Origin: a virus
Taxonomy: Duplodnaviria; Heunggongvirae; Uroviricota; Caudoviricetes
Virus record (IMG/VR): IMGVR_UViG_2778261136_000010
Reading direction: 5' to 3' (one strand)
DNA: 22,471 bases
Shown here: positions 2,629 to 22,471 of the stretch, one piece after another
Position numbering within the stretch: the first letter of the stretch is position 1
Layout: every line of letters begins with the position of its first letter
Program-made: the position numbers and the translations under genes
The notes under the pieces: generated by a model
Databases searched by the model: none
Told to the model about the DNA's origin: nothing
Seen by the model: only the letters and a program-made list of their open reading frames with translations

Positions 2629-2974
2629 TCTCTGCTCCTGTTGATACGGAAAGGGAAACAGGCACACCGTTATTACGCCGCCCGGTCAGCCCCACCACCA
2701 TTGAACCATCAAAATTGCTGTTAATGGTGATGGAATCCAGCGTCAGCCGTGGCTCCCAGCGACTCAGCGCCACATACACTGCCGACATGACCTGCAGGCG
2801 TAATGCTGGATTTTGTGGCTGGTCTATCAGTGCCGACAGCAGGGAACCATATTCACGACGGGCAATACGGCTACCCTGCGGTGTCAGCAGAATGTCCCGC
2901 ACCGACTGGCGCAGATGGTCAATATCAGTAATGGCTTTACCGCTGGTATTGTTCATCCCGCTATAAAGCGTCAT
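2615..2974 (-). CDS. W: Baseplate wedge protein gpW
   Basis: 119 aa, ATG at 2974 overlapping the gpV stop; ends 14 nt into J. Sequence and size as for P2 gpW. Confidence 0.85.
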   Translation of the reverse strand: MTLYSGMNNTSGKAITDIDHLRQSVRDILLTPQGSRIARREYGSLLSALIDQPQNPALRLQVMSAVYVALSRWEPRLTLDSITINSNFDGSMVVGLTGRRNNGVPVSLSVSTGAENGSD

Positions 2975-3549
2975 ACCGGGCCTCCGGTTGTGTCGCCGCC
3001 TTTCAGGACGCCAGTATGCTGATGTGCATCAACCACAATCCCGTTAGAACTCATCACTCCGCCGCCCTGGGTAACGCCACCATTGATCACCACTTCGCTG
3101 TTAATGCGCGTGTGGTCAGCCTCCAGTACAAACTCACTGGTTTTCATGGTGATGTTGTCAGCGGCCTCAATGACCATTGATTTGATGCCCCTTACATACC
3201 AACGCCCGGTGGCAGGTTCGTATTCAAACCAGCCACCGTCAGGATGTTCTGTCACGCAGGCGTCTGCCGACGTCGACGGTGGCGCGAACTGATTCGAATA
3301 GATGGCGGGCAGCGCAAAGGCTGTTTCCAGATTGCCGCCCAGACTCAGTAGCACCACCTGCTCACCTTCCGATGGTCGCCACCATGTCCGGGCATTACCC
3401 GCGCGCAGCGTCAGCCAGTTAATCCAGTTGGTTTCAAGGTCGCCCGTTTTCACCCGGCAAAGCCAGTTTTCCCTGTCCACTTCGGTGACTACCCCTGTGC
3501 GGATCAGGTTGGTGATAAGGCGCATGATTTCGGTTAATTGTGCGTTCAT
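2971..3549 (-). CDS. V: Baseplate spike/hub protein gpV
   Basis: 192 aa, ATG at 3549; MNAQLTEIMRLITNLIRTG...WWRPSEGEQ resembles the P2 gpV N-terminus. No obvious Shine-Dalgarno upstream. Confidence 0.85.
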   Translation of the reverse strand: MNAQLTEIMRLITNLIRTGVVTEVDRENWLCRVKTGDLETNWINWLTLRAGNARTWWRPSEGEQVVLLSLGGNLETAFALPAIYSNQFAPPSTSADACVTEHPDGGWFEYEPATGRWYVRGIKSMVIEAADNITMKTSEFVLEADHTRINSEVVINGGVTQGGGVMSSNGIVVDAHQHTGVLKGGDTTGGPV

Positions 3550-12392: not shown

Positions 12393-13817
12393 TTACTTAC
12401 GTGTTTCAACTATATTCAGCCCCTTATAAAGGCTTTGATGGATATATACAGAACCAGTATTTGGCAACATTAAATCAGCATCTTCACATCGGAATCTAGC
12501 CGTACCGGAATTGCCCAACCGGACACCAATCACAGAAGCATTAAATAGAGTTTTCATCAATTCACGAGAAGTATAGCGCTTACAAAGGTCAGGCGCTTTC
12601 TCTTCAATCTTACTGATGAATTCTTCTGTAGAATTATATCTATGCTGCGTCTGACGTAAAGATTCCAATAGCTCACCAAAATGAGGGTAGAGCCTTTTGT
12701 ATTCTTGTTTTAAGTCCTCAACTTTCCAAGCGCTGTACCGTTCTTCAGCTATTCTAATTATATCCTTTTTTATTTCAGAAGCATTAGCATCACAGCGTTT
12801 TTGGCATTCTTGCAAAAACTGAATAACTTCTCTTGGGCGCAAAAATGTGCGCTTCACCAAATAGTTAAATGGTGAAATACTTCCTCTCATTTCACCTTCC
12901 TCAAAAATATCATCTATAGTTATATTTTCCGGCAATCTGGCGTTCACCATATCTTTCAACAACTCTGGTGTCCAGATTATTTCTTCTTCAATTGCTCGGT
13001 GTTTATCTTTATCATCAAATTCCAGCCCTTGATAAATATCAGAGCGTAAAAATGTTACAATATGAATACCTTTGGCTCTAGTATCAGAATAACTATCATT
13101 AATATCTTTTGTTGCCTTCAACAAGCCAATCAAAAGGCTTTTGGCATCATCCGATCCATCCCAAGAATCATCTAATCGATCAGTGGCAATTAGCACCCCA
13201 ATATCTGTACAAATTTCTTTAAGCTCGTCAAGGATGATTTTTATTATTTGAGGTGTCAATGGTGCTTGCGAAGCATCCTTATTAAACCCCACAGCATATC
13301 CGAAAGCCTCAAAATTGAATGAACTTAATCCCGAGAGTAACTTCCTTGCAGTTCCCAAAGTAGTTGGCGATATACCACCATAGTTATCAGAAACAAATTT
13401 TTTAATTCTAGCAAGGGCCTCCCGAGGTCTTTTCTCTGAAAATTGCCTACCTGACCTAATAATTTCTGCCGCAGCCTCAACAGCTATTGCAAATTTCCAA
13501 GCATTACAATGTGCCTGTTCGGGTAACAACCCTTGCTCTTGATATTGTTTTAATGCTCCCCAAGCATACTGGTCTGGGGTCATGACATTTACGATAACGT
13601 CCTGCCCATATTTTGCTCTTACCAACCTTGGGAGTTGGGTAAAGATGGATGATTTCCCAGCCCCCTTTCTTCCAAGAAAATGGGCACTATAGAAACTCAG
13701 AGCTTGCTCAACTTGAGGAGTATTGATGAAATAATCAGCCAACCTTCTATCAGCTTCAGCATCGACAGTACCAAAGTTGAGTCCCTTAACTGTAAGGCCT
13801 AACGCATCTAACCGCAC
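12393..13817 (-). CDS. Hypothetical P-loop NTPase (474 aa), AT-rich cargo gene in the cos-proximal variable region; candidate phage-defence / exclusion protein, family not recognised
   Basis: GTG start at 13817 with an AAGGA Shine-Dalgarno 6 nt upstream. Walker A GRKGAGKS at residues 49-56; Walker B-like GVLIATDRLDD near residues 207-217. Markedly lower GC and different codon usage (AGA, ATA, TTA) than flanking phage genes. Own terminator. No TOPRIM or other effector motif recognised by eye. Confidence 0.7.
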   Translation of the reverse strand: MRLDALGLTVKGLNFGTVDAEADRRLADYFINTPQVEQALSFYSAHFLGRKGAGKSSIFTQLPRLVRAKYGQDVIVNVMTPDQYAWGALKQYQEQGLLPEQAHCNAWKFAIAVEAAAEIIRSGRQFSEKRPREALARIKKFVSDNYGGISPTTLGTARKLLSGLSSFNFEAFGYAVGFNKDASQAPLTPQIIKIILDELKEICTDIGVLIATDRLDDSWDGSDDAKSLLIGLLKATKDINDSYSDTRAKGIHIVTFLRSDIYQGLEFDDKDKHRAIEEEIIWTPELLKDMVNARLPENITIDDIFEEGEMRGSISPFNYLVKRTFLRPREVIQFLQECQKRCDANASEIKKDIIRIAEERYSAWKVEDLKQEYKRLYPHFGELLESLRQTQHRYNSTEEFISKIEEKAPDLCKRYTSRELMKTLFNASVIGVRLGNSGTARFRCEDADLMLPNTGSVYIHQSLYKGLNIVETRK

Positions 13818-14127: not shown

Positions 14128-14361
14128 TTAATGCAGCCAGCTGTCGTCTTCCCACACCTTCTGCATAATTTTCATCACTTGTTTTCTTTCTTCGTCCAGT
14201 TGCAGTCCGGTCAGTTCCACACCGTTAGAGCTACCTTTGCGGATACGAATTACCGTTTTGGGATACAGGGGGCGCAGATTGCGGTAAAGCTCGGATTCAA
14301 GGGCGTCCAGTGTAGACAGGCTAATCTTCTGCTCTTTATCGATCATTATTTCAATGCGCAT
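14128..14361 (-). CDS. DinI-family protein (SOS-regulated; homologous to the DinI-like part of the 186 Tum antirepressor)
   Basis: Start placed at ATG 14361 (MRIEIMIDKEQKISLSTLDALESELYRNL...VWEDDSWLH), with a GAGGTGA Shine-Dalgarno upstream. Aligns by eye with E. coli DinI (MRIEVTIAK...ETWESADDWFVSE). The ORF track extends to 14433. Confidence 0.8.
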   Translation of the reverse strand: MRIEIMIDKEQKISLSTLDALESELYRNLRPLYPKTVIRIRKGSSNGVELTGLQLDEERKQVMKIMQKVWEDDSWLH

Positions 14362-14371
14362 AAAAGTCACC

Positions 14372-14560
14372 TCAGCTGATGACATCCATTGAGCGGTTGT
14401 ATTCGTGGGTTCTGATTTTTGCCATGAGTTCATCTGTCAGTTCAGAAACCCACTGCAGGGCCAGCCCCTTCTCTTCATCACTACACTCACTAGCAGCTAC
14501 AAGCTTAAGAAAAAAATCAATGCGCTGGAGCTTCAAAGACTCCAAAAAATAGTCCTGCAT
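14372..14560 (-). CDS. Small protein (62 aa), first gene of the LexA-controlled operon; possibly the N-terminal part of a split Tum-like antirepressor
   Basis: ATG at 14560 with an AGGAGG Shine-Dalgarno 4 nt upstream; stop TGA at 14372-14374 lies 11 nt before the DinI-like ATG. No recognisable motif. Confidence 0.5.
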   Translation of the reverse strand: MQDYFLESLKLQRIDFFLKLVAASECSDEEKGLALQWVSELTDELMAKIRTHEYNRSMDVIS

Positions 14561-14602
14561 CTTTCCTCCTATGACACCAAAGCAATACTGTATACATAAC
14601 CA

Positions 14603-14618
14603 CTGTTTATATTTACAG
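14603..14618 (-). promoter_or_regulatory. LexA operator (SOS box) overlapping the promoter of the tum-like operon
   Basis: Seen: perfect CTGT-N8-ACAG (CTGTTTATATTTACAG). On the minus strand it overlaps a candidate sigma70 promoter, TTTACA-17 nt-TACTGT. A weaker second box-like sequence lies at 14588-14603. Confidence 0.7.
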
Positions 14619-14712
14619 TATATAATAATCTTACTGATGTAAAACGTTTTTTTACGTTCATCAGCCTGATATGCCTGGTATTATTAAGAGCACGAATTGT
14701 TAACCCGCGTAA

Positions 14713-20330: not shown

Positions 20331-20455
20331 GATGCAACATTCCTCGTTTAATGATGATTAATCAGGACGAATACGGATCGTTTGTATTTTGTGAACACCA
20401 TAAACATACGATCGCACAATGAAATCGTCAAGATAAAAGTTCACTTGGAGTGACC
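20331..20455. promoter_or_regulatory. Lysis/lysogeny switch region between apl and cI
   Basis: Candidate apl promoter on minus: TTGACG (20431-20426), 17-nt spacer, TATGTT (20408-20403). Candidate cI promoter on plus: TGAACA (20392-20397), 17 nt, CACAAT (20415-20420). These are assignments by eye; operator sites not resolved. Confidence 0.45.
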
Positions 20456-21025
20456 ATGAATTTGGAGAAAGGCGGACGAGGCGCTATAGAGCGCATGGTA
20501 GAAGCTTATGGATTCAAAACTCGACAGGCGTTGTGCGATCATTTAGGAATCTCTAAAAGTACACTCGCCACACGCTACATGCGTGACTCATTCCCAGCAG
20601 AATGGGTAATCCAGTGCGCCCTTGAAACGGGCACCTCGCTTAATTGGCTCACAACCGGACATGGTTCAAAGCAAACTTCAGGTAATACAAATACTATGGA
20701 AGTTGCTAAATATGTATTATCTGATGGTGCCTTGCGTGAAGACAGTTTTTATATTTTTGATAAGGGATTTCTACCCTCTACGTTTAAAAAACCTTTTGTC
20801 ATCACAGATAACAATTCTGAATTTATTTGTGATAAAGAATTTGATGATATACGTGATGGTAAATGGGTAATAAGTATTGATGGCGAAATAACAATCCGCG
20901 ACATTACTCGTTTACCCGGTGGAAGAATCTTCGTTGAAGGTGGAAACAGAGCCTTCGAGTGCAAGATAGAAGATGTTGAAATAATTGGAAAAATTATAAG
21001 TTTAACAATTAAGTACGTTAGGTAA
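20456..21025 (+). CDS. cI: CI immunity repressor (186-type)
   Basis: Start placed at ATG 20456 with GGAG upstream, giving 189 aa; N-terminal HTH (TRQALCDHLGISKSTLATRYMRD). The ORF track gives a GTG at 20450. Confidence 0.85.
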   Translation: MNLEKGGRGAIERMVEAYGFKTRQALCDHLGISKSTLATRYMRDSFPAEWVIQCALETGTSLNWLTTGHGSKQTSGNTNTMEVAKYVLSDGALREDSFYIFDKGFLPSTFKKPFVITDNNSEFICDKEFDDIRDGKWVISIDGEITIRDITRLPGGRIFVEGGNRAFECKIEDVEIIGKIISLTIKYVR

Positions 21026-21040
21026 TACCGGGAGGAAACT

Positions 21041-21232
21041 ATGCTTGGTAAGGTATTTTTTGTGGTTTTATCATGCTCTTTGTTATTAAACCCACTAACT
21101 ACCTATGCTAAAAATTATCCTTGTTCTGGGAAAAAGGGAGGTGTCTCTCACTGTACCTCCGATGGTAAGTTCGTTTGCAATGATGGAACTATTAGTAAAT
21201 CAAAAAAAATCTGTACTAAAAACTCGCGATAA
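21041..21232 (+). CDS. Small secreted cysteine-rich protein (63 aa), moron candidate between cI and int
   Basis: ATG at 21041 with a strong GGGAGG Shine-Dalgarno; signal peptide [23 protein letters not shown]; ~40-aa mature peptide with 4 Cys; AT-rich. Confidence 0.55.
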
Positions 21233-21365
21233 TTTTTGCTTTTATATCTGCGCCTAATATAACAATGAGGCGCAGGCTAACCACAAAAGTTACATACTCA
21301 CATAACAAAAAATAGCCAACTTCATTATGGCTTCAGTGAGATGTATGGTCGCGGGATTTCATACA

Positions 21366-21394
21366 TTGACACTGGTTATATATACAGTAAAAAT
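21366..21394 (+). promoter_or_regulatory. Candidate int promoter with an overlapping LexA-box-like palindrome
   Basis: Seen: perfect -35 TTGACA (21366-21371), then CTGGTTATATATACAG (21372-21387), which is CTGT-N8-ACAG with one mismatch, then a TAAAAA -10-like hexamer. GGAGG at 21405-21409 and int ATG at 21419. Confidence 0.3.
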
Positions 21395-21418
21395 GCTCTC
21401 CACTGGAGGGCATTTTTT

Positions 21419-22471
21419 ATGGCAGTACGAAAACTCACCACAGGAAAATGGCTTTGCGAATGTTACCCCGCCGGACGTAGTGGACGTCGTGTGCGTAAAC
21501 AATTCGCCACCAAAGGCGAAGCTCTGGCTTTTGAGCGTCACACGATGGAAGAAACCGAAGCAAAGCCCTGGCTGGGTGAATCAGTAGATCGTCGAACACT
21601 GAAAGACGTGGTTGAGCTATGGTTCAAACTACATGGTAAATCACTGACTGCTGGGCAGCATGTCTATGACAAATTGCTGCTGATGGTTGACGCTCTGGGC
21701 AATCCCCTTGCAACTGATCTCACATCTAAAATGTTTGCCCACTATCGAGATAAACGCCTGACAGGTGAGATCTACTTCAGCGAGAAATGGAAGAAAGGAG
21801 CCAGCCCGGTCACCATTAACCTGGAGCAAAGCTATCTAAGTAGTGTTTTTAGCGAACTATCCCGCCTGGGCGAATGGTCGTATCCAAACCCACTGGAGAA
21901 CATGCGAAAATTCACCATCGCAGAAAAAGAGATGGCATGGCTTACCCATGAGCAGATTGTTGAACTGCTGGCTGATTGCAAACGTCAGGACCCAATTCTG
22001 GCACTGGTAGTTAAGATATGCTTAAGCACAGGCGCACGCTGGCGTGAAGCCGTAAATCTTACCCGCTCACAGGTGACCAAATACCGAATTACCTTTGTAA
22101 GAACGAAGGGGAAGAAAAACAGAAGCATCCCTATCAGTAAAGAGCTTTACGAAGAGATCATGGCGCTTGATGGGTTCAATTTCTTCACAGACTGCTATTT
22201 TCAATTTTTATCCGTAATGGAAAAAACGTCTATCGTGCTCCCTCGCGGTCAACTGACACACGTTCTGCGCCATACGTTTGCGGCGCATTTCATGATATCG
22301 GGTGGAAATATCCTTGCTTTGCAAAAAATCCTCGGACATCACGATATAAAAATGACTATGCGTTACGCTCATCTGGCACCGGATTATCTGGAAACGGCGC
22401 TCCGTTTCAATCCTCTGGCAACGCTGCCAAGTGGCGACAAAGTGGCGGCAGCGGTTGGCATTACCCCGTAA
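21419..22471 (+). CDS. int: Tyrosine integrase (P2/186 Int family)
   Basis: Start placed at ATG 21419 (MAVRKLTTGKWLCECYPAGRSGRRVRKQF...), ~350 aa; C-terminal catalytic motifs HVLRHTFAAHF...LGHHDIKMTMRYAHL. Stop TAA is the last 3 nt of the window. The ORF track extends to 21341. Confidence 0.9.
   Translation: MAVRKLTTGKWLCECYPAGRSGRRVRKQFATKGEALAFERHTMEETEAKPWLGESVDRRTLKDVVELWFKLHGKSLTAGQHVYDKLLLMVDALGNPLATDLTSKMFAHYRDKRLTGEIYFSEKWKKGASPVTINLEQSYLSSVFSELSRLGEWSYPNPLENMRKFTIAEKEMAWLTHEQIVELLADCKRQDPILALVVKICLSTGARWREAVNLTRSQVTKYRITFVRTKGKKNRSIPISKELYEEIMALDGFNFFTDCYFQFLSVMEKTSIVLPRGQLTHVLRHTFAAHFMISGGNILALQKILGHHDIKMTMRYAHLAPDYLETALRFNPLATLPSGDKVAAAVGITP

Follow-up and report, generated by a model that had tools for sequence, protein, structure and literature searches.

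The 22,471-nucleotide (nt) IMG/VR record IMGVR_UViG_2778261136_000010 (Caudoviricetes), hereafter the window, in whose coordinates positions are given throughout, is a 186-like prophage with recognisable terminase, portal, gpA, Dam, cII, apl, cI and int genes, and it carries between the repressor gene cI and the integrase gene int a 63-codon open reading frame (ORF) for a small cysteine-containing peptide of the YdcA family. We propose, with moderate confidence in the explanation as a whole, that this YdcA-family mini-protein is a passenger of the prophage repressor operon, and that its gene is a lysogenic-conversion (‘moron’) gene and not a toxin gene. Judged from its sequence, the ORF is a genuine gene, far beyond what chance would produce, and it encodes a credible lysogen-expressed envelope protein that is an ordinary member of a known family.

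The position and composition of the gene lie at the base of this proposal (Table 1). The initial annotation had described an AT-rich ORF of 63 amino acids (aa), preceded by a Shine–Dalgarno sequence and lodged where phage 186 has nothing, and each of these points holds: GGGAGG stands 5 nt before the ATG, cI and int abut or share a boundary in 186, so that the YdcA-family gene occupies an extra 393-nt segment in the window, and the guanine-plus-cytosine (GC) content is 34.9% in the gene and 51.6% in the window as a whole. In AT-richness the gene is matched by the C-terminal half of cI (33% GC). With a gap of only 15 nt after the cI stop codon (21023–21025), a Shine–Dalgarno sequence of its own and, in the terminator scan, no terminator-like site between the two genes, the ORF is placed for inclusion in the cI transcript, as had been supposed. 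The gene has the marks of a moron: it is absent from 186 and hence dispensable, its GC content is atypical (35% versus 52%), and the content of the slot that it fills varies among relatives. In lysogens of the 186-like Salmonella prophage BTP5, the repressor operon is transcribed in all conditions examined (PMC7067206).

The YdcA-family gene and its product

Profile matches assign the product to the catalogued, uncharacterised YdcA family (PF27300, NF007463, phrog_6000). It scores 116.1 bits on NCBIfam NF007463 (PRK10040.1-2; curated cut-off 93) over the full length of the model and matches phrog_6000 with an E value of 4.6e-34, in the PHROG category ‘unknown function’, and PF27300 ‘YdcA’ is precomputed for the exact protein in the protein collection. 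The homology search that the initial annotation had named as a check thus yields a family, and the idea of an orphan insertion is not borne out, the gene being a standard feature of a very common prophage lineage. Other searches with the product returned only a chance match in Pfam (in a library without the YdcA model), no PADLOC family at E values up to 1 and no match below E 1 among the BFVD viral structures.

NCBIfam has three PRK10040 models for the family (NF007462, NF007463 and NF007464). The E. coli K-12 protein YdcA (57 aa), predicted to be periplasmic and of unknown function (bioRxiv 10.1101/2024.02.12.579971), resembles the window protein in size, in its layout of a leader followed by 40 residues, in motif and in its four cysteines. 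The two differ in location, the window gene lying in a prophage repressor operon and not beside rydC/cybB, and in subgroup, the window protein belonging to the equivalog group of NF007463 and not to that of the 57-aa model NF007462, on which it scores 68 bits against a cut-off of 118. Membership of the YdcA family does not by itself explain the role of the gene. We found no paper on WP_001321204, PF27300 or PRK10040, and the literature on ‘YdcA’ consists of incidental expression data and a single 3-hydroxypropionate (3-HP) phenotype. The ‘ydcA’ of pS88 and the ‘YdcA’ of B. subtilis share the name but are unrelated proteins, and we could find nothing behind the cluster's source name, ‘Conjugal transfer protein’; in both of the two cases inspected, plasmid copies do not adjoin transfer genes.

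The precursor begins with a lysine at position 4, a 12-residue hydrophobic core (V5–L16) and T-Y-A at positions −3 to −1, features from which residues 1–23 are predicted to form a Sec-type leader that signal peptidase I would remove. When 25 relatives are aligned, only Ala23 (−1) is invariant in the leader, which is otherwise merely hydrophobic. A lipoprotein reading, based on VLSC at residues 9–12, was rejected, since Cys12 varies among the relatives and is too close to the N-terminus. The mature peptide contains eight lysines, one arginine and four cysteines (net charge +6.8, pI 9.6, mass 4.26 kDa). Sixteen of its positions are invariant in the same alignment, including all four cysteines (C28, C38, C46, C58) and P27, S29, K32, G33, G34, F44, D48, G49, S52, S54 and K55; across 150 representatives C28, C38 and S52 never vary, and at least 90% retain C46 and C58. 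The shared motif is PCSGxKGG(V/I)xxC...F(V/I)CxDGxxSxSKxxC, the four cysteines presumably form two disulfides, and the AlphaFold2 (AF2) model has a core with a predicted local distance difference test (pLDDT) score of 90–92 and a beta-hairpin at 35–38/44–46.

Selection distinguishes the two parts of the precursor. By Nei–Gojobori counts of nonsynonymous (pN) and synonymous (pS) differences, with diverged copies of the gene in prophages of E. coli S21, Klebsiella and Hafnia for comparison, the mature part has a pN of 0.02–0.07 with a pS of 0.7–0.9 (synonymous sites being saturated), whereas the leader in the same comparison has a pN of 0.36–0.57. Very strong purifying selection on the mature part, behind a variable leader, is what one would expect if the peptide is exported and its mature form strongly constrained. 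The earlier description of a small, exported, lysine-rich peptide with cysteines is thereby supported, export being predicted from leader features and family conservation.

Genomic distribution and a probable relationship to Dis2

The prophage version of the gene is common in E. coli. Among 5,426 complete E. coli genomes, about 590 have the cI–ydcA–int module at a coverage of at least 80%, BL21, ATCC 11303 and ATCC 8739 being three of them. The label given to the gene by the NCBI Prokaryotic Genome Annotation Pipeline (PGAP) is ‘hypothetical protein’ or ‘YdcA family protein’. The exact protein is indexed in 24,624 blocks of the assembly collection and occurs in assemblies by the tens of thousands. 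In IMG/VR, a relative is encoded on at least 535 contigs. None of the deposited enterobacterial phage genomes carries the gene, and the phage records with homologues are those of Moraxella, Acinetobacter, Haemophilus and Pseudomonas phages; in the Moraxella and Acinetobacter siphoviruses the homologue sits among morphogenesis genes. The BL21 copy (NZ_CP060121.1) lies in a degraded prophage with a truncated gene A and cII pseudogenes, in which cI, the ydcA-like gene and int are intact and adjoin rcdA. A 3-kb contig from a ‘Bacillota bacterium’ metagenome-assembled genome (MAG; JAEWTL010000113.1) carries an E. coli-type cI–ydcA–int arrangement with 94–99% protein identity and is probably mis-binned or contaminant DNA.

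The order cI to ydcA recurs in 186-like prophages of E. coli (with two immunity types), Klebsiella, Hafnia and Yersinia, and in several of them a further gene follows. In a sister prophage lineage, seen in E. coli S21 and 09-02E and in Klebsiella (loci L019, L020 and L021), a gene for a 443-aa KAP-family P-loop NTPase separates ydcA from int and has its start about 12 nt beyond the stop codon of ydcA, and in the Hafnia prophage a 347-aa gene follows the ydcA homologue. Elsewhere the slot is filled by other cargo: vB_EcoM-813R9 has a 558-aa ATPase there, and Klebsiella phage 4LV2017 has a 349-aa protein. The space between cI and int behaves as a cargo or defence hotspot. The arrangement extends to Haemophilus phage HP2 (NC_003315.1), where an unannotated 60-codon YdcA-family ORF (E 1.4e-22 on NF007463) starts on the last base of the annotated cI coding sequence and lies between cI and orf1(S). 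In two Klebsiella loci (L021 and L022) a gene with a SocA_Panacea domain lies downstream of int. The window itself has a 474-aa ORF with the P-loop motif GRKGAGKS at 12393–13817 (minus strand), within the variable stretch that separates the portal gene from gene A; it matched nothing in Pfam or PADLOC and is a candidate for an uncharacterised cargo or defence gene.

Viewed across the family, residence in a 186-like prophage is the exception. A profile search of 1.84 billion cluster representatives gave 476 at E values of 1e-3 or better, and with one genome per species 115 loci were confirmed, the best 80 of which were kept for context counts; they come from Alpha-, Beta- and Gammaproteobacteria and a few Myxococcota MAGs. 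Five of the 80 lie in a 186-like prophage and the other 75 do not, an example of an ordinary chromosomal context being a family gene between hom and cysS. About ten further loci have upstream, on the same strand, an XRE-type helix-turn-helix gene or, in two or three cases, an S24 repressor-like gene. The sole recurrent functional association is with exported nucleases, fused or adjoining, in about 17 of the 80 species-level loci. In six Methylococcales loci and in P0191 and P0226 the domain comes after the signal peptide of an Endonuclease_NS protein; further fusions are to Endonuclease I (L106) and SNase (P0127), and SNase genes directly adjoin the family gene in some ten alphaproteobacterial loci. 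These nucleases carry the same 34-residue domain right after the signal peptide; the window domain differs in standing alone, with a charge of +7 as against about +1.5 and with no nuclease gene nearby. Over the family the mean charge is +4.5 for stand-alone domains and +1.5 for nuclease-fused ones, and proteins with two or three tandem copies of the domain exist. On a Citrobacter plasmid (NZ_CP053574.1, locus positions 2926–3327) a 133-aa YdcA-domain protein is encoded at the end of a type VI secretion system (T6SS) cluster (tssF-G-J-E), next to a GIY-YIG nuclease gene, and in one representative of the family the domain is joined to VasL (T6SS).

Structural comparison points to Dis2, a component of the Legionella type IV secretion system (T4SS) Dot/Icm. 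The full-length alignment profile had a single significant chain in the PDB, 7MUC_AN (Legionella Dis2, Lpg0823; E 2.4e-5), which remained first after removal of the leader (E 0.22 with 18 sequences, 0.014 with 86 diverse domains). The same chain came first in Foldseek with the AlphaFold model (E 0.07, probability 0.97, 39% identity over 38 columns), the next match having a probability of 0.08, and in the reverse direction a leaderless Dis2-like protein, which carries PF27300, matched YdcA models at E 3e-4. A similarity to low-density lipoprotein (LDL) receptor class A repeats, which came next after Dis2 with the leaderless profile (E 0.02–0.06), was set aside, as it covers only 21 residues and the number of cysteines differs. 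The common core, C-S-x-K-x-GG(I/V)-x-x-C...G-x-(F/L)-V-C-N-(D/N)-G-x-x-S, is present in both lobes of Dis2. The structure search that had likewise been named as a check has Dis2 as its top match. Over profile and structure comparisons the statistics are marginal (E 0.014–0.07), and we consider it probable that the YdcA-family peptide and the Dis2 lobe are homologous. Besides the core, the two share export and a disulfide-rich, periplasmic character (predicted for the window protein). Dis2 differs in having two similar lobes with ten cysteines and five disulfides, where the window protein has one lobe and four cysteines, and in being built into a T4SS and lacking the basic SKSKK tail; the window contains no T4SS genes. 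Dis2 is located near the outer membrane, where it contacts the outer-membrane complex proteins DotK, DotC and DotD of Dot/Icm (PMC8486379, PMC12716638).

Proposed transcript boundaries between cI and int

Directly upstream of the int start codon lies a putative control element in which a promoter-like site, an SOS-box-like palindrome within its spacer and a hairpin followed by T6 overlap (Table 1). Pairing of an A-tract with the T-tract extends the hairpin at 21395–21411, and the int Shine–Dalgarno sequence GGAGG (21405–21409) falls inside its 3′ arm, where pairing would sequester it. Pairing is kept in relatives, through a C-to-U wobble or, in E. coli S21, through changes on both sides (GTCCTC/GAGGAC for GCCCTC/GAGGGC), and the promoter/SOS/hairpin module is kept before int in E. 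coli 813R9 and S21 and in Klebsiella, Hafnia and Yersinia prophages. We suggest that the hairpin with T6 is a probable terminator of the cI–ydcA transcript. A transcript from the int promoter-like site would have its start within the 5′ arm, too late for the hairpin to form. The int gene is probably expressed from a LexA-controlled promoter of its own, insulated from the cI transcript, and the SOS-box promoter-like site does not support the initial view that int simply rides that transcript. With a terminator and a separate int promoter, the slot between cI and int would be free to take cargo. We found nothing useful in the literature on LexA-controlled int in P2-like phages; an int promoter that overlaps the terminator, if there is one, would bear on how integrase expression may be separated from repressor expression in 186-like prophages.

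Only one other such SOS-box-like site occurs in the window, CACTGTTTATATTTACAGTA at 14601–14620, for a chance expectation at three mismatches of 0.00. It is located just downstream of gene A and upstream of a DinI-like ORF: minus-strand ORFs of 62 and 101 aa follow it at 14128–14560, the latter looking DinI-like. This arrangement presumably matches that of the LexA-controlled tum antirepressor of phage 186, and an SOS-like site in that position would make the prophage SOS-inducible, probably.

A second hairpin, 16 nt after the ORF stop codon, had been noted in the initial annotation as following the gene. It is present, but neither a terminator role nor conservation stood up. No U-tract follows the stem on either strand, the sequence after it is GCTAACCACAAAAG, and the terminator scan was silent there. 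The window has 8 perfect 8-bp stems with loops of 3–15 nt, no excess over shuffled sequence (5.2 ± 3.0). The perfect stem occurs neither in any of 11 related loci nor in any of 79 relatives from IMG/VR: the related loci have AGCC(G/A)CAG and nearly all the IMG/VR relatives have AGCCGCAG, giving an internal mismatch, and many relatives also have CTGCGTCT in the 5′ arm, so that the differences break pairs and do not compensate. The hairpin is absent from loci in which another cargo gene begins within about 12 nt of ydcA, a gap too short to house it. By eye, the pR/pL region (20331–20455) has no half-sites similar to it, and an operator for cI was rejected on that ground. Neither this hairpin nor that at 21395–21418 has an Rfam match beyond a chance one to Phe_leader. 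Although the stem is perfect, GC-rich and stable for its surroundings (Table 1), a function as terminator, transcript stabiliser or protein-binding palindrome is on these counts very improbable, and we conclude that the perfect stem reflects a private substitution (G at 21270) and is not a functional signal.

Table 1. Features of the cI–int region of the window and the related ORF in phage HP2
Feature	Position	Strand	Basis or remark
cI repressor gene, 186-type, 189 aa, first of lysogenic operon	20456..21025	+	Pfam Phage_CI_repr 2.8e-33, Phage_CI_C 3.1e-28; start from gene calls
Shine–Dalgarno GGGAGG, 5 nt upstream of ATG 21041	21030..21035	+	Sequence reading
YdcA-family gene, 63 codons and stop (ATG 21041; TAA 21230–21232)	21041..21232	+	Family matches, purifying selection
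Predicted Sec signal peptide, residues 1–23, cleavage after Ala23	21041..21109	+	Features and family conservation
Mature 40-residue peptide, four cysteines	21110..21229	+	Alignments, composition, AF2 model
8-bp hairpin CTGCGCCT-N12-AGGCGCAG, 16 nt after ORF stop	21248..21275	+	Free energy (dG) −14.7 kcal/mol, local z −4.1
Promoter-like site for int, TTGACA-17 nt-AAAAAT	21366..21394	+	10/12 matches
SOS-box-like palindrome CACTGGTTATATATACAGTA in promoter spacer	21370–21389	+	17/20 consensus positions, CTG-N10-CAG intact
Hairpin GCTCTCC-ACT-GGAGGGC (21395–21411), then A and T6 (21412–21418); probable terminator	21395..21418	+	dG −19.2 kcal/mol, z −6.5
P2/186-type tyrosine integrase gene int, 350 aa, stop at window end	21419..22471	+	Pfam Int_N 3.2e-32, Phage_integrase 8.7e-22
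HP2 YdcA-family ORF	2920–3102 in locus L001; about 2486–2668 in the record	− (record)	Same match in phage S2

Possible roles in the lysogen envelope

We envisage that cI and the ydcA-like gene would be co-transcribed from pL in lysogens, in a transcript ending at the hairpin and T6 at 21395–21418, and that Sec would export the precursor, with cleavage after Ala23 and formation of two disulfides to follow. The product would be a periplasmic peptide of 4.3 kDa, strongly basic and folded like a lobe of Dis2. On the periplasmic side of the outer membrane this peptide may bind a partner, for example an envelope lipoprotein or complex or nucleic acid in transit, and partner binding would alter the envelope properties of the lysogen. 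We infer that the domain acts in conjunction with large envelope machines or exported nucleases, in the periplasm and close to the outer membrane or at it. Passenger genes of this kind have a precedent in phage lambda, where rexA–rexB behind cI are lysogen-expressed members of the repressor operon. Like these and other cI–int cargo, the window gene lies directly downstream of the immunity repressor on the same strand and is dispensable and AT-rich; its product differs in being exported (as predicted) and not cytoplasmic or inner-membrane, and it has no sequence relationship to known exclusion or defence proteins, as judged by PADLOC.

Several points weigh against the proposal of a repressor-operon passenger with a role in conversion. 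We found no experiment or transcript data for this gene in the literature, the promoter scan did not locate pL, and PADLOC gave no match. Most members of the family lie in chromosomes with no link to phages, and this favours a general role in the envelope over a phage-specific one. Deletion of dis2 in Legionella has subtle effects only (PMC12716638). Finally, nuclease-fused copies are much less basic, and the fold as such is therefore not one that binds DNA through its charge.

What the peptide does in the lysogen can be ranked with low confidence only. An envelope-level block to incoming DNA or superinfecting phage is the role that we place first, as a tentative suggestion, because the gene is kept in the repressor operon next to defence-like cargo; we found nothing useful in the literature on periplasmic exclusion proteins in repressor operons. 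Behind it comes a contribution to stress tolerance, a lesser possibility under which the prophage copy would add dosage or a variant of the host YdcA and confer acid or organic-acid tolerance of the envelope and gut fitness. Deletion of the host gene makes E. coli W sensitive to 300 mM 3-HP, and the paper that shows this, which does not follow the phenotype up mechanistically, cites induction of ydcA at pH 5 under YdcI (PMC7642389); a sigma-S site found by systematic evolution of ligands by exponential enrichment (SELEX) is located between rydC and ydcA (PMC5493296), and most family members occupy ordinary chromosomal contexts. The prophage protein, however, falls in the other equivalog group, and its repeated capture behind phage repressors of two kinds suggests a role that matters to the phage.

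A third role, which overlaps the envelope block and which we think rather unlikely, is that of a nuclease partner or periplasmic DNA-binding module that binds DNA or a nuclease such as EndA and recruits, retains or modulates nuclease activity or sequesters DNA arriving by phage, conjugation or transformation. The fusions to Endonuclease_NS, Endonuclease I and SNase, the adjoining SNase genes, the strong basicity of the stand-alone peptides with their near-invariant lysines, and the presence of the gene in phages of the naturally competent hosts Haemophilus, Moraxella and Acinetobacter would all fit it, but fused copies are nearly neutral, no nuclease gene lies next to the window ORF, and the association could equally reflect a shared anchoring function. 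We also entertain, as a speculation of comparably small weight, that YdcA/Dis2-lobe proteins are a periplasmic module acting at the outer-membrane face on DNA in transit, with the repressor-operon copies blocking foreign DNA, which would explain both the fusion to three exported nuclease families and the presence in a T4SS. Temperate phages of several families would then, to follow the same doubtful line, have repeatedly placed a basic stand-alone version in their repressor operons.

That the gene encodes a toxin-like or antimicrobial peptide, whether a cationic defensin-like bacteriocin or a host-directed effector, is by far the least probable of these roles. The initial annotation had named a periplasmic or secreted effector or toxin-like peptide as an example of what the gene might encode, and a small, cationic (+7) peptide with four cysteines invites the idea, but it finds no support: no immunity, maturation or dedicated export gene is near, the neighbours being cI and int only; Sec alone would carry the product no further than the periplasm of a Gram-negative cell; many non-pathogens have chromosomal copies, and K-12 has its own; the domain serves as a module in larger periplasmic proteins and in a T4SS structure; and searches of Pfam, NCBIfam and PHROG matched no bacteriocin family, nor did PADLOC give a match.

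The gene is already catalogued, as ‘YdcA family protein’ in PGAP, and is in that sense not a discovery. By combining genomic context with structural comparison, our analysis instead outlines an extremely conserved, predicted exported mini-protein whose gene lies in the repressor operon of a prophage that ranks among the commonest in E. coli, and offers three leads to its function in its recurrent position behind cI, its probable relative Dis2 at the outer-membrane face and the repeated fusion of its domain to exported nucleases. As the prophage is present in BL21 and ATCC 8739, that function should be easy to test. If a block to incoming DNA proved correct, lysogens would bar superinfecting phage genomes or transforming DNA able to cure the prophage, and the peptide would represent a new class of envelope-level exclusion factor carried by about a tenth of E. 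coli genomes, BL21 included.

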